Origin: a virus
Virus record (IMG/VR): IMGVR_UViG_3300050821_007134
Coordinates: 1-64,000 of that record
Reading direction: 5' to 3' (one strand)
DNA: 64,000 nucleotides
Each line of letters opens with the position of its first letter. Positions within the stretch are counted from its first letter, which is position 1. The notes beneath the pieces are model-generated. The model was not told the origin of the DNA and ran no database searches. It saw only the letters and a list, made by a program, of their open reading frames with translations. Made by a program: the position numbers and the translations under genes. Shown piece by piece: positions 7,142 through 39,828 of the stretch.

Positions 7142-7723
7142 ATGAGAAAACTCTTCGGAATCCTGATCTTAATAGTCCTATCTTTATCCTGCGCGAGCGT
7201 ACCAAAACCTCACGTTCCGTTGATACTGAAAATAGCGCCCGAGCACAAAGGGATTGATCCTAAGCTCCAGCCCTATTATGATGAATACGTTGCTTTGGCC
7301 AAAGAGCGTGGAATCATTTTTAAAAATAAAGTAACCATGGGATTTAAAGATCTCGACAGCGAAAATTACATCGGAGTTTGTCATCGAAATGGTTTCATGC
7401 ATTTTAGAGAAATCGACATAGACAAAGGGTATTGGGATCACACCACTGAACAACAAAGAATAAACGAAGTGTTCCATGAATTGACTCACTGCCTCTGCAC
7501 TAGGGATCACGATTTCGCGCCAGGAAAATTCTATCCAGAAGTAGCGGTTTGGAAGATTTTTATAGACATAACAAACATGTGTGTGTCAAAAGAACCAGAA
7601 GGTTTCAAAGACGATGGCTGTCCAGTAACTATAATGCACCCCCGAATTCTTTGGCAGTGGTGCTTCAATATGTATTACGACGAATATATAAAAGAAATGT
7701 TCGACAGATGCGAACCTTGGTAG
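7142..7723 (+). CDS. Lipoprotein zinc metallopeptidase (HEXXH, metzincin-like)
   Basis: Lipobox LSLSC, HELTHCLCTRDH zinc motif and IMHP Met-turn-like motif. Confidence 0.7.
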   Translation: MRKLFGILILIVLSLSCASVPKPHVPLILKIAPEHKGIDPKLQPYYDEYVALAKERGIIFKNKVTMGFKDLDSENYIGVCHRNGFMHFREIDIDKGYWDHTTEQQRINEVFHELTHCLCTRDHDFAPGKFYPEVAVWKIFIDITNMCVSKEPEGFKDDGCPVTIMHPRILWQWCFNMYYDEYIKEMFDRCEPW

Positions 7724-7748
7724 TATAACAAGACTACAGGAGAACGTA

Positions 7749-8117
7749 ATGACAGAAGAACAAACACAAATAATAGACGCAGTTTTTCAGAGATTCATTG
7801 ACAGCGAAAATCAAAGGCCAATCTGGAATCCAATAGACGAGGCCATGTACAAACTTCAATGGATCGATAGCGATCAACTTGTCAGAGAAGCCAGCATAAT
7901 TTCCTACGAACATAAGCACGGTAAGGTTCGATGCAATATGCAACATAACCAATCAGTTTGCTTTGCTCCTAAAATAGTGCAAGCTGCTCAAATACTTTTA
8001 ACTGATTATGAGTCAACAAGAAATCTGCCCGCTGCGCACAAGTACATGCTTCAGTACTACTTATCTCTTCATCATTTGAAAATTATCTATACGGACGAAA
8101 ATAAGACAAAAACTTAA
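7749..8117 (+). CDS. Hypothetical protein
   Basis: AGGAG RBS; 122 aa ORF. Confidence 0.6.
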   Translation: MTEEQTQIIDAVFQRFIDSENQRPIWNPIDEAMYKLQWIDSDQLVREASIISYEHKHGKVRCNMQHNQSVCFAPKIVQAAQILLTDYESTRNLPAAHKYMLQYYLSLHHLKIIYTDENKTKT

Positions 8118-9358
8118 GTTAGATCTTTGTACACTCTTCCATTGTTAGAAGTTGTGTATTTTGATGGAACGATATCGTTCAGCGTAATGGCGTTGCCATT
8201 TATAGATTTTATCCCTCGGGTTAATTCAACCTGTTGTTCAGAATAGATGTAAACAAAATCTCCCGGACTAAACAAGCTAGCGTCGGCAGTGTGAATCACT
8301 GCTGTTCCATTACCTGCGGCGCTGAAAAGGCCAACAGAAAGTAGAGTTTTATAAATTGCCACAGTCGAAATAATATTGGCTATCATTTGAGTCTGAGCAT
8401 TAACGGCCCCTTGCAAACTCAAAATCTGCGATAGAGAACCACTAAGAGCATTAACCCGCAAATTTAAAAATGAATATCTTTGACCATAAAGACCGCTGCT
8501 TGCAGTAATGGTCCCGTCGGTTAAACTCTGAGTTATAGAACCAAGATTTGTATCAAGTTGTGTTATCCTGGTTGGTATAAATGTATTTCGGACAGTAAAT
8601 GCAGCCTGCAATGCTGCCAATTGAGTCGAGTGCAACTTCGATGGTCCAGGCATTGGAGCAAAGTCTGGTTGAGCTTGCCAAGAACTTAGAGCAGAAAGAA
8701 ATGTATTCAAGTTGCTTATCGCCGTTACATTCTGAGCCGCTCTAGTAGCGTTGGTATCTGTTATGCTATTGAGTGCAGTCAATTCTGCGTTGGCCGTCGC
8801 TTGTAAGGCGGTAACGGCGGTTACCATATTATTTTTAATAGTAACAATGGCACCATCCATAGCCATATCGATGCCAGTAGTTAACTCGGTATCTGTGTAC
8901 ATTCCCGTAGCAGACGTTATTATGGCATTAATCGCAGTCATTTGAGCGCTCTCTGAACTGACTGGCGTAAAAGCCTCAGAATAGTTCTTACCTATCGCAA
9001 AGCCAAGGGCGAATGGGTTTACTTTAGACCAGACATTCGTGGGCGCTAGAGAAGGAACTGATGCTTGAGTATTATTTGGAAAGAAAACATTTCCCAAAAT
9101 ATGATTGGCCGAATCTATCAAATTTTGTTCCGTGATAGACGTTCTTCCATTGCCATCCAAATTTTGTAATTCTATTTGATATGCTGTAATTAAACCATTG
9201 ACCGGACTGAATAGGCCATCATTCGCTGTATCGAGACTTTCGAGACTTGCAATTTTGGCATTGAGTGCATTTTGGGCATTCTGAATCCCTGCAATAGTAG
9301 CGTCTGCCTGAACTATAGCTAAGGAAAATGCAATTCTATCATTCTGTGAAAGTGGCAT
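8114..9358 (-). CDS. Probable virion structural protein (baseplate/tail)
   Basis: 414 aa, A/T/N/S-rich with few charged residues, inside the baseplate module. Confidence 0.55.
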   Translation of the reverse strand: MPLSQNDRIAFSLAIVQADATIAGIQNAQNALNAKIASLESLDTANDGLFSPVNGLITAYQIELQNLDGNGRTSITEQNLIDSANHILGNVFFPNNTQASVPSLAPTNVWSKVNPFALGFAIGKNYSEAFTPVSSESAQMTAINAIITSATGMYTDTELTTGIDMAMDGAIVTIKNNMVTAVTALQATANAELTALNSITDTNATRAAQNVTAISNLNTFLSALSSWQAQPDFAPMPGPSKLHSTQLAALQAAFTVRNTFIPTRITQLDTNLGSITQSLTDGTITASSGLYGQRYSFLNLRVNALSGSLSQILSLQGAVNAQTQMIANIISTVAIYKTLLSVGLFSAAGNGTAVIHTADASLFSPGDFVYIYSEQQVELTRGIKSINGNAITLNDIVPSKYTTSNNGRVYKDLT

Positions 9359-15478: not shown

Positions 15479-15755
15479 TTTTTAAGCTTCCTATTTAACT
15501 TAAAGATTCCAATTCTGGGAAGTACCCCGTCTATATCCTAGATATGACATTTGGGGCGGTGCAGTATTTACCGTGTGAATAGATACTGAATGGGTATTTG
15601 ATCAAATACCCAATACAATACTTAATAATAACAAGTAGTTGTAGAACTTATTTGATTAAATCAGCGTCATTTTTGAATAGATACTGAATAGAAAGAAACC
15701 CATTGACCTAATCCGCGTTCCGCGATATTCTATTTGAAGAAAGTGGGAACAATAA

Positions 15756-21631: not shown

Positions 21632-24600
21632 CCTTTAAGAGCTTTATCCATGGCTTCCACGGCTTTATCGATATAGGGGCTTACGGCCTTTCTAACCTTG
21701 GCCACAAGCTCTTCGCCTTCATCGTCTGATTCCTTTTCGACTAATGCGGCGTGTTCTATGGCTTCATGGTAGAAATCTTCGGCCATACTCCAAATGGCCA
21801 ATTTGTCTTCGCCTTTATTGGAAACCAATTCATAAGATGCTGCGGCGCGACTTGCCCACTTCCATGCTGTTTCTTCTTCAATTTGCCTATGGGTTTTTGA
21901 AGCGATCTCGTCTCGGGCTTCTTCAATTTTCAACATTTAATTTCTCCAATTTGTAAATACCGCCTTCGGTTTCTACAGTCAGACCATTTTGGGTTTGATC
22001 CAAAACTTTGACTATTGGGCTAGTTCTGATGTATCTACTGAGACCGCGAGTGACTCTGAGAGCAGGATCTCCTTGAACGTCAACGACCTCTAAGCTTCCC
22101 GAAACACCTTCGCCAGGGCTTACGCGGGTGAATTCAGATTTTGCATGAATTTTGGTTAGTCTGTAATCCACATCGGGCAAGTCTTTGATAACTTGAGGAG
22201 TTTTTTCTTTCACTGTGTCGGCTACTGTAATTTTCATCATTTTGAGTGCATCCCATCTTTATTGTTTGCTTTATCGATACATTTCGTAATCACGAATGCC
22301 TTTCGATATTCTGTTTCATAACGTTTGACTTCTTCTGAATTTAAACCTTTTTCATAACATTCTGCAACGGCATCTGCGCACTTCTGAATATCACTTTGGT
22401 TTCTACAGCCAACTTTTATGAGAGCTACGACCAAAATTTCACTAATCATTGTGGTATCTCCGTGTTAAGAGGAGTTCTCATGCGTAATTGTAGATCTGAT
22501 TCTTTTGAATCAATAATTTTTCCAAGGGGACCAAGGCGACAGAAAACTGCCACTCGGTAATAAATCTCTCCATTATCATTCTTGCGAGGATAATAATCAA
22601 CAATGGCGCCAAAACAGTTTTCATAAAATGGCTGACCATGGATCAGAACCATATCGTTGGCCTTAAACTGAAGCTCTTCTTGCTTAACAACATTAGATGG
22701 TTCTTCGGCACATCCTAGAAGGAAAGCGAACAAGACTAAAAATAAAAACTTCATTTGGTCTCCTCTGGATACAAAATTTTTCTTAAGTTCTCGTTAAATT
22801 CTTTTCTCTTGGCCATAGATTCTTTGAGCATGTAGTGCATGATGAAAAGGAAGTTTATAATGGCGGTAGGGAAGACAAAAGAATCAGATTTGACATAAAG
22901 GATATTGACCATAACTGTTAGGAAGGCCGATAGCCACAAAAAGAAAGTGTATTTGATAAAAAGGAAAAAATTCACAGCCATATGCTGTTTCAAAAGCTTT
23001 TGAACTGCTTGTTTTTGTTCTGGAGTTACTACTTTGTCTTCCATTAATCCCACCAAGCGTTTTGATATTTCTTCAAAATTTTGTTGAGTCTGTCGAAATC
23101 TCTCATGCGATCCCGCCAGGCTAAACCGGCATCGCGCAGAGTGTCTATTCCTTCTTCTCTCTTATCTGTCTCGGTTTTAACACCTTTTCGACCGCAAGTC
23201 CAGTCAATAAATCCTTGTTCGTCTAAAAGTCTTTTGAGATTCATCCGGCCCCATTTTTTATCGTGAGCTTTTCTGTATGGCTCTTCGTATTGGTTCTCAT
23301 ATAAACGATTACAGATCTTAATAGCTTCTTTCATGGCTTGTTTGACGGGCTTCGGATAAACTCCATAACCTTCATCCATGCATTTTTTGACGCGCTGAAG
23401 CTTAAAAGCCATGATGGCGAACATAGAGTCTGATTCGAAGTCGTATTTGTCCCAAACAAATCTACCGAATGCAATTGCTCGACTGAGACTCTCGTAAAAT
23501 ACTCGAATATTGATCTTAATGGGATAGAAGATCTCGTCATTCAAATATTCCCAGAATTCTTTTAACCGTTTCACGCCCATTCCTCTTCTTTAAAGTCTAC
23601 TGCTACCATGTGATCGTAGCAATTAATACACGGTTTGTCGGTGCCTTTTCTCTTATATTCTTCGGGAACTTCTCGTTCCTTATCTTCTTCAGAAAGAGGT
23701 CTATCGCAAAGCCAACAATTATCGGGCATCTTTTTCTACCTTGGTTGGGAAGCTGGCAGTTACTTTATATGTACCCGACTCTTTGACGGTGAAAAGAAAA
23801 GTAATAGGGTCCTTTTCGTACAGGGCTAGTCGGCGTTTAAGATCGGACACATGATCAAAATAAAGAGCCAAATTTACAATTATGAAAGAAAAAACCCACG
23901 GACGAATGGTGTTTGTCATTGTTAAAGACACCAGAATTATGAAGGTAGCCAAAAATCCAAGACCGTTTAACCAATAAAGAACTTTTCTTACTTTCACCAA
24001 TTTCTCCTATTTCTACAAATATACCATACTTTTATTTTTACTAACAACTTTTATATTTTTCTGCAAGTTCCTAGTAAAAATGCAAGTATTTGATTCTACA
24101 AGTTTTTCTACAAGTTTTGCAGCAAATCTTGCAGAAAGTCATGTTCAATAAGAGTGTTCATTATCGCTGAACAACGATAAATCTATGAACATGAATAACT
24201 ATTCCCCAGTAAAATCAGATAGTAACTGCTGGACTTGCCCTAAAGTATTTCTGTCGACCGTCGTAATTTGTGTGCGAACTCTAGCTAAACAGGCCAGGCC
24301 AAACCCGTGTCGATTCTTTACAACTTCAAAGTCCGTTAATGACGCGGCCATCCAAGTTCTTGGAGCAACGCGAACCAAATAATTTGTGGAGCCCATTTCT
24401 ACAGTGTGATTGGTCACCAAATTCTCAAGAATCTCTTCTTTCTTTGCGCTGTACATATGGGTAAAATTAGCCTGATAAAACAGGGCAGTCTTAAGAATAG
24501 ATTTCGTATCTCCTTTAGAGAGGAAAGCTTCTTTTCTTTCGTAGTCTGAGGTACTTTCCGTTATACCTTCTGGGCTCCAATTAGCGGCAGGACTGCTAAT

Positions 24601-24929: not shown

Positions 24930-25066
24930 CTCTCCAAACGTATGTTTATAAACATACTTTGTAAAGGTATTTTTATGTTTATAAACATACTTATTCTCTT
25001 AAACGAACAATCGATTTAAGGGAATAATTATGTAGATCTATGCCTCGGACTATAGATCTAAATAAT
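24930..25066. repeat. Palindrome island: perfect 18-bp palindrome GTATGTTTATAAACATAC repeated 33 bp later, plus further inverted repeats
   Basis: TATGTTTATAAACATACT at 24941 and 24974; TTATTCTCTTAAA...TTTAAGGGAATAA; TAGATCTA twice. Confidence 0.8.
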
Positions 25067-32143: not shown

Positions 32144-32458
32144 TTAGTAGATTACTTGGCCGTTGGTGACCCATCCGTGGAACTTACATGAAGAATGAAC
32201 TTTCTTGATGGTCCCGTCGGGCTGCTTTACATCGACATCGCAATCGCAATTGATGGACGGCGTTATAGAAACGTCTTCCAAAGTAGATCCAGTCTTTTTC
32301 CAAACTGCGCCGTTTTGCGAATAGCTGGTTCCCTGGAAAGCCACGGCGATATAGTGGCCGCACGGGCATATTGGGCACTGGAACCAAAGAGAAGTCGGAT
32401 GACCGACTTTCATATGATCGTATAGATCCCCGTCAAGTTCTGTAAGTTTCTTTTGCAT
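32144..32458 (-). CDS. DUF6527-like zinc-binding protein
   Basis: FQCP..CGH, W...SITPSI, C.FHGWVTNG. Confidence 0.6.
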   Translation of the reverse strand: MQKKLTELDGDLYDHMKVGHPTSLWFQCPICPCGHYIAVAFQGTSYSQNGAVWKKTGSTLEDVSITPSINCDCDVDVKQPDGTIKKVHSSCKFHGWVTNGQVIY

Positions 32459-32476
32459 AGTGTTAAGATTGCTTTA

Positions 32477-32876
32477 AAGCCCCGTTAAGCGAGCTTTATA
32501 CCCGATTGGGTACGATAAAGCCTATTTAATAGGTACTTATACCCGTTCGGGTACCCAATTACATCCATTATGGTTTTCATAACCGCCGGACGTTAGAAAA
32601 TCACTAACGAATAAGATTTCATGCAACATACTGTCATTTTTCGATAGTTTCGAACAAATTGTCTATTATAGTAGCCATTTCAGGCATTTATGATCACTAT
32701 AATGTACATTTGGTGCCTTATAGGGTGCCAAAAATCATTTTAATGGTACCTTATAGGGTACCTTTCCCGCCATTTGGCAGGATAAATGGCAGGATATGTC
32801 GCAAAATCTCAAAAAAATCGTCATATCCGTGAGACGTGTCGCGATTTGATAAGTTTTTCGATATATAAACTGATCA
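32477..32876. repeat. Island of tandem, unrelated operator-like palindrome pairs
   Basis: TTATACCCGnTnGGGTAC twice (41 bp apart), TGGTRCCTTATAGGGTRCC twice (33 bp apart), TGTCTATTATAGTAGCCA/TGATCACTATAATGTACA, TGGCAGGA twice. Confidence 0.8.
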
Positions 32877-35043
32877 CTTTTTGGGGAAACAGGTGCAGAC
32901 TTCAAATTCGGGATCATTCTTATCAATAAGCATTCCGTCCCATTCGTAACACCAATGAAGAAAGGGCCTTTGGCGTCGGATCTCTTTATATTCTGATTCA
33001 ATGGCGGCTTCCCAGATCTTCTTGGTCCATTTTTGGAAATAAACCGACTGTTTTAGAGGAACTTCTGTCGAAAGAACTTCTCTAATCATTTCGACCATGA
33101 GCTTTTCTTGTTCTGGAGTAAGTTGGATCTCTTCTAGAGTAGGCATTATTTCAAGATCTCCAGCGAGGTTTGAAGTCTGAAACGAAGCCCCTTAATGGCT
33201 TGACTTCTGTCGCTATAAATAATGACTGCACAGAAATAGATCTTCCAGAATCCAACGTCCAGCTTTAAAACTCCAGGATATTTGTTTCGCAAGGAAAATG
33301 TCATGCGTCACCCGTTGATTGAAATGGTTTTGTCGTCATGGTAAATCGTAAAGTCGCCCTTATTTATGTGCCCGCACGCGGAATCATATTTAATTTGATA
33401 ATCATCGGGTAACTTTTCGAGCATTTTCTTTAACATTCCCACGGTAACTTGCTCCCATGCGTCTGTGTCTTTGGCGAAAGGGGTCTCGATGTTGTATTCT
33501 TTATCGATTTCTTCTATAGGGAGGAATATTTCGGGTATCTCCTTTGTTGGCAATGCGTGCAATTCTCTTTTGTAAAATTCCTTATAGGCCTCGGTCGGTT
33601 TGCCATCAAGAAGAATCCAACCATAATTTGGATGGAACAGGTCTTTGGGCGCTCCCATATTTTTAGCCGATGCTACTGAGGCATCTTCAATAACGGTTTG
33701 TTTTTCTTCATCTGTCATGTCTTCAAACTTTTTCATTTATGCTCCATAATTTATAATTGGTAAGTGATAATGCATATTTTTTGGATTCCAAGCCAGTTCC
33801 ATTACAACTTGCCAGGCGACTATCTCCCAGTCTGGCGCGAAAGGATCTTCGGTCCAAGTATAATTGGCGTCATTTAGTTCAGCGTCTTCTAGTAGCATCA
33901 TATCTTTTGTACCAATAGGCCAACTGCATCGCCTTTGTAAAGAAGGGGATCGCTCAATCTTATGGCAAACTGTTCTATACCGGTACATTTATAAACAGTT
34001 CCATCTACTTCTATTTCTTGATTTAGAACTTCTTTTCTTGGCATTGTTTCTTCTAAATGTAGCGTATATACAGTACCCTTGCCACCAATAACAAATTTGT
34101 CTTCGCTTTTGAACTTTCTCATTTCTTTAAACTCAATTCTATATCGGCAAAAATATTTGCGATTTTGGATTTCACCACATAAAAGTAAGTATCGGCGGTA
34201 TTCCAATATTTTAAACCGTATGTCTCAGGATGAACCGAAGAACATTTAGGGCACGGAACCAATTTTGTCTCGTTCTCGATCTTATCGAACACTCCAAAAC
34301 CAGCGCATTTATTGCAAGGTCTTTTGGTAGAACTGCTTTGAATAAGCATTAGTTTCCACACCAATCGAAGTGAGCGTTTAAAATGTCCAAGAATTCTTTG
34401 TCAAGACTGGTAACTTTATATCCCAACTTTTGAAAGTGATCTACGATTTCTTTTGAGTTAACCGGCGTTGGGATCGACTGATCATAGGACGCATTATAAT
34501 CGTAAGTGCATTCGCCAAAAGAGGAGTTATGTTCGATGGCCTTTTCAATCAATTTAAGGGCTAGCTTTGTATTTGTGACCAACATTTGATCGTAAGTTAT
34601 TTTTTGTTTTTCTATGGCTTTTTGATACCTTCGATAGGATTCCTGAGCCGTCATCGCGTGCGCCTGGGAGACCAAAAGTAGAATCATCAAAATTTTCATT
34701 TCTTTCTCTCCTTTATTCGTTGCATTCTTTGATGGAGGGATTCAGCCCTACGTGTTTTCATTTCCATGACCTTTTCGTCTTTCTCAAGATCTTCATCCCA
34801 TTGATAAAGAGAGTATCCGCCATAGTAAACGTGCAGAATTGCTTGGGCATCTTCCTCAGATACGTGAGGAGGCTTCATGCCAGCTTCTTCCATTAAACTC
34901 AAAAACTTATTTGCCATGTCTTGGCTGCTGTCGGCATATTTGAATTGTATTTGATGATCGGTAAGAAATCTATGAATTTTACTTAACATCTCTTCGCGTT
35001 TCATCACTTTTCCCCATTTGGCGGCGGCCAGATGATCATACAA
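32874..35043 (-). CDS. Run of small hypothetical ORFs
   Basis: Coupled ORFs in the track. Confidence 0.5.
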
Positions 35044-35195: not shown

Positions 35196-35525
35196 TCAGA
35201 AGTTGTTATTATTTGGCTTCTTGTGTCTAATCTTCTTGGGAAGGCGATGATCCTGAAGCATATGACCGAAACTATCTTCCAAATTGGTAAATTTGTACAT
35301 GATATGACTCATATTAAGAATCCATAGCGCCGAAAAATATAACCCAGCACTAGTGTTCGGGTTTCCTCGTTCTAAGCTCATGACCGTAGGGCGTGAAACT
35401 GACATCTTCTCAGCAACTTGCGCGATGGTCAAATTCTGTCTGCGACGCGCCATTCTTAGGAGTTCGCCTAGCTTCTTTAATGTGTCTTCCGCTGAACTTT
35501 GTAAATAAACCATAATGGAAACCAT
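35196..35525 (-). CDS. XRE/HipB-like HTH protein (orphan, no adjacent HipA)
   Basis: LGELLRMARRRQNLTIAQVAEKMSVSRPTVMSLERGNP; upstream palindrome AATGTAAACAATACTTTACATT. Confidence 0.85.
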   Translation of the reverse strand: MVSIMVYLQSSAEDTLKKLGELLRMARRRQNLTIAQVAEKMSVSRPTVMSLERGNPNTSAGLYFSALWILNMSHIMYKFTNLEDSFGHMLQDHRLPKKIRHKKPNNNNF

Positions 35526-35984
35526 TGTTGCACATAATGGCTAAAATGTAAACAATACTTTACATTATCGCGAAACCTACCGCTCGTTCTTGTCCAGATT
35601 TATGGGGTAAAAACTGGATTTTTTGTCAGGTTAAAAGCTTACAAATTGGGACAAAAAGTCAGGTATAAACCTGACAAATGTTTAAACATTTTAGGCCCTT
35701 TTATGCGCAAATAAGCTCCTTGTATGTATACGTGTATAATTCGAATCAATAAAATCAAGTAGTTACAAGGATATACACGTTATACGTGACAGGTGGCAGG
35801 AATATATACATTTGGGACAATTTCGTGAATATCGGGACAAAATTTGTCCCGATTTCGTGCGGAGAATAAGGTCTTCAATCTCCGCATTACTGGTTAATAG
35901 GATCGCGATTATGCCTTAATCAGTCGTGTAAGTGTTTGATTTAAAAACCTTATATAGGACGATTATAAGGTAATCGGGTCAATA
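35511..35984. repeat. Island of operator-like palindromes with two IHF consensus sites
   Basis: GTCAGGT(T/A)-type pair 33 bp apart, ATCGGGACAAAATTTGTCCCGAT, TGCGGAGA-N13-TCTCCGCA; WATCAANNNNTTR at 35753 (+) and 35929 (-). Confidence 0.8.
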
Positions 35985-38860: not shown

Positions 38861-39223
38861 TCAGTCTATCCGGCCATGGCCAAGTGGATTGCGTAAATAT
38901 TCAGAATAATTCATAGCAGCATCCCTTACCCTTTGATCTGGGTCCTTTAGGGCCTTGCGCCAAAAACCGCTGGCTTTTGACTGTTTGGTCAAATAAGCCA
39001 CAAATCGCTCATACCAGACTGAACTAGTGGCGGCATATTCCAAAATCTTGTTTGGGCACTTCGGATGCCGTAAAATGGCCTTCCGATTTTGCCACTGATC
39101 CATTCGAACGAAACGATCCTCAGTCGGTTCCAAGGTCGACATGAAAAATTCGGAAAATTGGGCTTCCGTGGGTTCCGCCGCCATAAAGGCCTTCAGGGTC
39201 GGATAGTCAAATATTTTACGCAT
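38861..39223 (-). CDS. HEAT/LRV-repeat-like protein
   Basis: RKAILRHPKCP...ALKDPDQRVRDAA. Confidence 0.5.
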   Translation of the reverse strand: MRKIFDYPTLKAFMAAEPTEAQFSEFFMSTLEPTEDRFVRMDQWQNRKAILRHPKCPNKILEYAATSSVWYERFVAYLTKQSKASGFWRKALKDPDQRVRDAAMNYSEYLRNPLGHGRID

Positions 39224-39270: not shown

Positions 39271-39828
39271 GGGATTATATGCTAGCGCATATATTTGCTA
39301 CGAAATCGGGCTATTTTATATGACATCGCATATATTCTATGCGATCATGCAGAAATACTATCAATGGTATTTTTGGGGCCGGAAGTGGGCTCTGAATCGA
39401 GCTGGCGGGCGGAATTCAGTGGAAGGGTGGATTGGGCCGGGCTGTCACGGAACTCGTTACTATGCCCTATCCTGGCTCATTTCTGGCCCCTTTATAGCGT
39501 GGTATCGGGACTGTGGCGGCCCGGTTAAGGTATGGATATAATTTTGGGAAAAATTTTTATAGCTATGGATATAAGAAAAATTTTGGAAATTTTATAGTGA
39601 TTCGATGTCCTAGTACATTAGACCCTTGCCTCGGCTGTATACCTACCTACCGGACGACTCGTTTTCCTGACTGATTCCAATAGGATAGACGTTTTAGGTG
39701 CTGTCTAATGTGTGTACAGACTGTCAACTGATTAATCGTGCCAATGATAGCTGTCTGGTTCTACATACATACGAGCTGTCTAGTTTATCCACAAGTGTCA
39801 ACGAATGTGTGTACAGTGCTCTTCCCCT

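Follow-up and report, generated by a model that had tools for sequence, protein, structure and literature searches.

The DNA analysed here (the window, 64,000 nucleotides) comprises the first 64 kb of an IMG/VR virus record of 171,073 bp that is rated complete. Between about 8 and 40 kb its genes are read from the minus strand; most are small and have no annotation. A 415-bp gap at 32459-32873 separates two of these minus-strand genes. As had been noticed on first inspection, it contains no credible gene, the longest ORFs being only 57 aa (with a TTG start) and 47 aa. The gene upstream of the gap (32874-33146, minus strand; stop codon 32876-32874) encodes a 90-aa protein of no family. The gene downstream (32144-32458, minus strand) is a stand-alone gene for a 104-aa DUF6527/BubE-like protein (Pfam PF20137, E = 7.7e-8), and no Shine-Dalgarno sequence precedes its ATG. 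Atlas clusters of PF20137 'BubE' are 80-95% viral. The serine protease of ubiquitination-like Bub operons in bacteria, BubE, cleaves ubiquitin-like conjugates (PMC11601596). Judging from the family match, the putative BubE-like phage protein could remove ubiquitin-like conjugates and would then be a counter-defence candidate.

Searches for close relatives of the phage found none. The 30-36 kb stretch had no blastn match among 50,697 phage records, and the proteins flanking the gap had either no relatives in IMG/VR or one partial locus. A tRNA search of the region found none.

Palindromes in the gap

The gap contains six perfect inverted repeats with arms of at least 6, and their summed arm length of 37 was matched by one of 200 shuffles. 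Across the genome, the mean for 415-bp windows was 9.0 (sd 7.8), and of about 1,700 windows just seven exceeded the gap. The unit at 32470-32560 was significant when taken alone (2 of 200 shuffles), and the remaining 313 bp (32561-32873) showed no significant palindrome enrichment (22 of 200 shuffles). The gap is palindrome-rich for real, and the excess comes mainly from this one unit.

The unit consists of two 18-bp palindromes, TTATACCC-N4-GGGTAC, which start at 32496 and 32537. The gene-proximal one (TTATACCCGATTGGGTAC, 32496-32513, core TACCC-N4-GGGTA) matches the bacterial consensus described below, and the distal one (TTATACCCGTTCGGGTAC, 32537-32554) lies exactly 41 bp from it. The spacer between them (32514-32536) has a small hairpin, CCTATTTAATAGG, and is not conserved among other carriers of the pair. 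The AAGCC... modules that had been described as interleaved with the palindromes are no more than this spacer sequence, which separates the two TTATACCC...GGGTAC sites and is not conserved. The pair has the features of an operator array, namely the inverted repeat TACCC-N4-GGGTA within AT-rich flanks (TTATACCC...GGGTATAA) and 41-bp phasing from start to start. Across carriers the arms are fixed as far as TTATACCC/GGGTATAA and the central four bases vary freely, which fits a dimeric DNA-binding protein. In the 171-kb genome the motif is confined to the 32496/32537 pair.

The end of the proximal operator is separated by 38 nt from the ATG of the DUF6527/BubE-like gene at 32458. Each of the two operators has TATAA inside its right arm. 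No recognisable -35/-10 pair or Shine-Dalgarno sequence was found between the operators and the ATG, and a sigma-70 scan gave four weak sites (3.5 expected from shuffles), none of them at the operators.

Distribution of the pair in viral and bacterial contigs

The two-site pattern used for searching was YACCC-N4-GGGTR, 27 nt, YACCC-N4-GGGTR. It holds about 36 bits, so by our estimate about one chance match was expected in IMG/VR and about nine in the bacterial genomes. The pattern was present in 93 IMG/VR contigs, representing 75 distinct sequences, and in more than 120 bacterial contigs among the matches listed. The array is therefore found far beyond chance. When IMG/VR was scanned for a single site, 44 contigs matched, about the chance expectation; 19 of the 44 had a second site, 18 at exactly 41 bp.

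The bacterial carriers listed were mostly Bacteroidota, together with Firmicutes, spirochaetes, one Pseudobdellovibrionaceae MAG and others. Some bacterial genomes have three or four sites at 41-bp steps (G050, for example, has three). Like these multi-site bacterial arrays, the arrays of viral carriers L075/L105, L104, L079, L064 and L013 consist of three or four units in 41-bp tandem (31-bp in L013). About twenty of the viral arrays are no more than a few hundred bases away from the end of their contig. Just two of the 151 Bdellovibrionota genomes sampled carry the TACCC array, and the reversed-pattern control gave 0 matches in the same 151 genomes. Given this rarity, the cognate HipB may be absent from the phage's host.

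Bacterial context of the array

ORFs beside the pair were clustered for 120 bacterial loci among the matches listed, and one gene set dominated. It comprises an HTH protein of 72-83 aa (85 of the 120 listed loci), a Couple_hipA protein of 109-110 aa (72 of 120) and a HipA_C kinase of 316-332 aa (63 of 120); the trio was assigned to HTH_3, Couple_hipA and HipA_C (PF01381, PF13657 and PF07804). The bacterial HTH protein scored 78 bits against TIGR03070 (couple_hipB, type II TA system Y4mF family antitoxin; cut-off 71.65), and its nearest solved structure is HipB of Legionella HipBST (8ezt).

In 76 listed loci the array is upstream of the HTH gene, mostly ending a few nt before the start codon, and the bacterial operator consensus was built from these 76 arrays, oriented by the HTH gene. 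In our own reading of the loci, the native bacterial element contains the operon promoter, as TTGACA-17-TAnnnT around the proximal site (Firmicutes) or as TAnnTTTG (Bacteroidota). Because the array adjoins an operon of HTH (couple_hipB/Y4mF), HipS-like and HipT-like genes, it is predicted to be the operator array of that operon. Our literature search found no description of the TACCC-N4-GGGTA motif at 41 bp.

Two other identities were considered for the motif. The TAC...GTA palindromes resemble CsoR/RcnR-type operators, of which the type 2 site is TAC-N9-GTA (PMC3902906). This candidate was rejected because the spacing here is TAC-N8-GTA, not N9, and the bacterial neighbours are hip genes; PF02583 (DUF156 repressor) was found neither in the phage's own genome nor in 40 carrier records. 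Phage RNA-polymerase promoters (T7/Syn5-like, or the N4 hairpin) were dropped because the motif occurs once per genome and stands beside hip operons in bacteria.

A second array and covariation with the recognition helix

Outside the gap, at 39275-39335, the window contains a second orphan HipB-type array, TTATATGCTAGCGCATATAT and TTATATGACATCGCATATAT, 41 bp apart. Its layout is TTATATGC-N4-GCATATAT (8-4-8) with the same phasing as the first array. It is located upstream of a promoter-like TTGACA-17-TATGGT (39270-39242, minus strand) and of a gene at 38861-39223 whose 120-aa product is HEAT/LRV-like. When metagenomes were scanned for ATATG-N6-CATAT twice at 41 bp, many of the matches were of low complexity, and 14 arrays adjoin couple_hipB, HipS-like and HipT-like genes. 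Orphan arrays of this second class were also found in three more IMG/VR contigs, one of 366 kb.

The HipB proteins encoded next to TATATG-N6-CATATA arrays have the recognition helix GVALTVVRKIEQGK, and those next to arrays of the TACCC class have GVGLRFVRELEQGK, which is almost invariant. On this comparison the second array appears to match a sister HipB subfamily, with a predicted recognition helix that changes with the operator. That operator class and recognition helix change together is the strongest of the indirect evidence for the palindromes as candidate HipB binding sites.

Orphan arrays in phage genomes

HMMs of the three bacterial families found no match at E<0.01 among the phage's own ORFs. 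The gene downstream of the first array is the DUF6527/BubE-like gene and the genome has no homologue of the three hip proteins, so the array is an orphan. The phage element has exactly the architecture of the bacterial operator, and its cognate protein is missing from the phage. The sequence-only reading had proposed that operators of host TA regulators are present in the phage without the genes, and this is borne out, for HipB, by the pair at 32496/32537 and by the array at 39275-39335: in bacteria such arrays front hip operons, and the phage encodes none.

The orphan state is common among phages. A HipB profile was searched against 50 whole records (49 pair-bearing viral records and the phage's own genome) and matched two of them, one with a full operon (L112) and one with a weak match in a generic 178-aa HTH protein. 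There was no HipB match in 15 of the 16 pair-bearing genomes rated at least 90% complete. The 16 complete carrier genomes measure 28-187 kb and come from many lineages. When the HMMs were applied to all viral loci, the operon was found near the array in L112 only. There (IMGVR_UViG_3300029251_000412, 7552-9106) a full HTH-HipS-HipT operon lies behind the array, and the contig is either a phage with a TA module or a bacterial fragment.

Genes next to the array in viral carriers are replication genes, recombination genes and unknown small genes, with no neighbouring gene or family common to the carrier loci. Homologues of the DUF6527 protein, of the 120-aa protein and of the 90-aa protein were absent from the other carrier loci. 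The genes downstream of the viral arrays are mutually unrelated, and none is an evident anti-HipT factor. An autoregulated neighbouring regulator was also considered as the reason for the arrays and was rejected, since the viral loci have no shared or DNA-binding neighbour.

The placement of the arrays agrees with a control element. Most viral pairs (80 of 94) are outside long ORFs, and for 43 of the 94 an ORF of at least 60 aa starts within 100 nt and reads away from the pair. Co-oriented genes enclose 52 of 66 viral arrays, and a PWM from the bacterial arrays agreed with the orientation of the flanking genes in just 43 of 66 viral loci. A genome has one array of two to four sites; the phage studied here has one for each specificity class.

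The phage does encode an XRE-type HTH protein (35196-35525, minus strand), which is weakly couple_hipB-like (27.8 bits against a cut-off of 71.65; hhalign probability 89%). Its recognition helix, SVSRPTVMSLE, lacks the invariants G28, G30, L31, R32, F33 and R35 of the cognate family. As the helix differs in this way from that of the cognate HipB family, the XRE protein is unlikely to be the binder of the arrays. The gap upstream of its gene (35526-35984) has long palindromes of its own, ATGTAAACAATACTTTACAT, GTCAGGTATAAACCTGAC, AAATGTTTAAACATTT and ATCGGGACAAAATTTGTCCCGAT, and extra GGGACAA half-sites at 35648 and 35814. This gap is probably the control region of the XRE protein itself.

Other repeats in the gap and in the window

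The sequence-only reading had described the whole gap as a cassette of operators from many unrelated host regulators. The sequences it quoted are all present at the positions it gave, and the features other than the HipB-type pair are as follows. Two 19-mers, TGGTRCCTTATAGGGTRCC, 17/19 identical, start at 32711 and 32744 (32711-32762), 33 bp apart, and contain direct GGTRCC repeats with a 12-bp period. This pair is clearly non-random. TGGTGCCTTATAGGGTGCC, which had been called a palindrome, is a direct repeat with GGTGCC twice 12 bp apart, and its pairing with a GGTACC copy 33 bp away is correct (17/19 identical). At 32654-32714 there is an inverted pair of 19-mers, 79% complementary and each with TATAAT. 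From their sequence these are candidate divergent -10 elements without good -35 boxes, and the sigma-70-like matches there are weak, at shuffle level.

At 32775-32798 (plus strand) TGGCAGGATA occurs twice with a 12-bp period, overlapping a possible Shine-Dalgarno sequence and the ATG of the 47-aa ORF; we estimate its significance as marginal. By the same kind of estimate, the two copies of TGGCAGGA and the inverted 19-mers with TATAAT are just marginally above chance. The 47-aa ORF (32786-32929, plus strand) encodes a basic product, starts inside the TGGCAGGA repeat with AGGA 3-4 nt before its ATG, overlaps the 3' end of the minus-strand gene and may be spurious. The small palindromes TTATGGTTTTCATAA and CGTTAG-N7-CTAACG (32569-32609) are within chance expectation, and the GATAAGTTT...AAACTGATC module overlaps the stop codon of the upstream gene.

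The GGTRCC two-site scan of IMG/VR found coding Gly/Ala/Lys repeats only. The single-site scan gave three IMG/VR matches, two of which are 12-bp tandem repeats, and a second site at 33 bp was not found; in 401 Bdellovibrionota genomes the single site was no commoner than the reversed control. The TATAAT inverted pair, the two TGGCAGGA copies and the small palindromes were without counterpart in IMG/VR or the 401 Bdellovibrionota genomes, or were within chance. For the gap as a whole, the cassette of many host operators is thus not supported, GGTRCC being at the level of coding repeats or control and the other short palindromes within chance. Comparing the modules with regulator promoters, as had been suggested, succeeded for the 32496/32537 pair, which matched the HipB operon, and the other gap modules matched nothing. 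The GGTRCC pair, the TATAAT inverted pair and TGGCAGGA are private to the phage, and the simplest account of them is chance, or parts of promoters or operators that serve factors encoded by the phage.

Similar islands had been said to recur about eight times in the window. Six other gaps of the window, near 15.2, 24.7-24.9, 35.5-35.6, 38.2 and 39.2-39.3 kb, are palindrome-rich and within the top 25 windows of the genome. The 33-bp spacing recurs with different motifs (24942/24975, 32711/32744 and 39531/39564), and the 41-bp spacing is present at both HipB-type arrays. These recurring spacings hint at several regulators of similar architecture.

At 24942-24988 ATGTTTATAAACAT occurs twice, 33 bp apart, and a search of IMG/VR for this arrangement gave no match. 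A 33-bp tandem unit beginning with TATGGATATAA occurs twice at 39531-39596. Direct repeats with a 12-bp period, TCTACAAGTTTT twice and TTGCAGNAA twice, belong to the phased-repeat regions (24942-24988, 39531-39596 and 24095-24140). A 1-kb gap at a strand switch has a perfect 22-bp palindrome (15591-15612, core GGGTATTTGATCAAATACCC), and it is flanked by direct repeats ATAGATACTGAAT at 15579 and 15677 (15579-15690).

Discussion

We regard the gap as the regulatory region of the DUF6527/BubE-like gene and the 59 bp at 32496-32554 as an orphan HipB/Y4mF operator array gated by host HipB. On balance we consider this account probable, by a modest degree. In a host with a HipB-HipS-HipT module, HipB would bind the phage array, alone or together with HipS/HipT, and the downstream phage gene would be off until HipB was lost or titrated. 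Gating of this kind would tie an accessory gene of the phage to the condition of the host's TA system. When the phage genome replicates, its sites would necessarily soak up HipB. A gate is favoured because the element, where it is native, combines promoter and operator, and its phage copies stand in the same place with respect to genes. As the arrays are just upstream of phage genes, a promoter gated by a host repressor fits at least as well as the sponge that had been proposed for the gap. As a more general and tentative proposal, the orphan arrays may form, in many unrelated phages, a non-coding interface with host HipB-S-T modules, serving either as a switch that activates accessory or counter-defence genes once the antitoxin is gone or as a sink that holds the kinase complex inactive.

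The main rival of the host-HipB gate is an operator sink or tether, in which the arrays would mainly titrate HipB or assemble HipB-HipS-HipT on replicating phage DNA and any promoter activity would be incidental. The kinase toxin would then be held inactive on DNA, or antitoxin synthesis would be derepressed. About 90 phages retain both palindromes at exactly 41 bp despite the absence of a common downstream gene, the array at 32496/32537 has no clear promoter elements, the arrays show only weak conservation of orientation towards genes (43 of 66), and this phage has two specificity classes, all of which speaks for a sink. Operator-bound higher-order HipA-HipB complexes of E. coli reportedly keep HipA inactive (work of Schumacher et al. 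from 2015), and this also counts for a sink. However, a genome has a single array of two to four sites, and the arrays are nearly always intergenic and often right before a start codon, a position which a pure decoy does not need. A repressor titrated off its own operon would, moreover, let toxin and antitoxin rise together. We consider a sink not very likely. Still less is to be said for left-overs of TA cassettes, or portable promoters spread by recombination, that now work as ordinary promoters or 5' leaders to which HipB is irrelevant. TA cassettes are mobile, the native element includes the promoter of the operon, and L112 keeps the complete operon behind its array. Neutral remnants should decay, yet the 19 single-site contigs keep an intact second site, 18 of them at 41 bp, and 16 of the carriers are complete genomes, 28-187 kb in size and of many lineages. 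Promoter activity alone does not require that both half-sites of both operators be retained, and we consider such a captured promoter or fossil unlikely.

The arrays could also be bound by a phage-encoded protein from a different family or one that has diverged strongly, such as the XRE protein at 35196-35525, and the likeness to hipB operators would then mean no more than that the regulators share an ancestor. Phages often have XRE-type HTH genes, and this one weakly matches couple_hipB (27.8 bits; hhalign 89%), but its helix is without the invariant residues of the cognate family, and no protein family is common to the arrays, either in the viral loci or in whole records. Such a binder seems improbable. 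The palindromes could instead be hairpins of a structured RNA, either a leader or a small RNA. Folding gave z-scores of -5.1 (minus strand) and -6.9 (plus strand), and on the plus strand the GGTGCC copy stays paired through G-U. However, palindrome-rich DNA of any kind folds well on both strands, and no Rfam match was found in the window, with only sub-threshold chance matches in 32300-33000. The TACCC stems are invariant, the loops are free and the stems co-vary with the protein helix, which argues for recognition of DNA by a protein rather than for an RNA; we consider the latter highly improbable.

The orphan arrays bear on whether and how phages deal with HipA-family kinase TA modules, for which a defence role is only hypothesised (PMC8262856). 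A conserved and searchable DNA signature in about ninety phage contigs without TA genes gives a testable handle on this question. The operator code of a very common HipB-S-T family of Bacteroidota and Firmicutes, previously undescribed, is defined here, with two specificity classes tied to changes in the recognition helix. Should the arrays indeed gate phage genes, the diverse genes that they precede would be candidates for new counter-defence functions, in this phage the BubE-like protease and the HEAT/LRV-like protein.

The E. coli hip operator is TATCC-N8-GGATA. The sites described here, TACCC-N4-GGGTA or TATATG-N6-CATATA at 41 bp, are unlike it in motif and in phasing. Like the hipBA and hipBST promoters (hipBA of E. 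coli K-12; HipBST of E. coli O127 and Legionella), the bacterial arrays are tandem palindromic operators before the autoregulating HTH antitoxin gene of a HipA-family kinase module (PMC8262856). The bacterial counterparts share the split HipB-HipS-HipT gene order with HipBST, whereas the phage array, unlike hipBA and hipBST, has no hip gene at all.

As a sink, the arrays might be likened to the pseudo-ToxI RNA and to datA, in that a non-coding nucleic acid would soak up a component of a host system. Pseudo-ToxI of phage phiTE is an antitoxin mimic directed against TA-based defence, and datA is a chromosomal sink for DnaA. Pseudo-ToxI is an RNA and datA a chromosomal locus, whereas here the element would be a DNA operator for a protein antitoxin. 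As far as our literature search reached, no DNA operator sink for a protein antitoxin has been described.

Phages 186, CTXphi and GIL01 have LexA boxes and cyanophages have pho or NtcA boxes, through which phage promoters are wired to a host repressor. Like these phages, the carriers of HipB-type arrays have the site of a host regulator before phage genes and lack the regulator gene, an arrangement by which the phage would read the state of the host. Unlike the LexA, pho and NtcA boxes, the regulator here would be a TA antitoxin found on mobile cassettes and not a core stress regulator, and the controlled genes vary from phage to phage. Aca operators are a conserved inverted-repeat pair that marks variable small accessory genes (anti-CRISPR loci) in many unrelated phages. 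The HipB-type arrays resemble Aca loci in their conserved inverted-repeat pair, their variable small accessory genes and their occurrence in unrelated phages; however, the Aca repressor is encoded by the phage beside its operators, and phages with HipB-type arrays have no gene for the cognate repressor. If the arrays are indeed an interface with host HipB-S-T modules, they would point to unknown genes directed against TA or defence systems, in the way that Aca operators point to anti-CRISPRs. Among known systems, the arrays look best filed with phage elements that are wired to host repressors.
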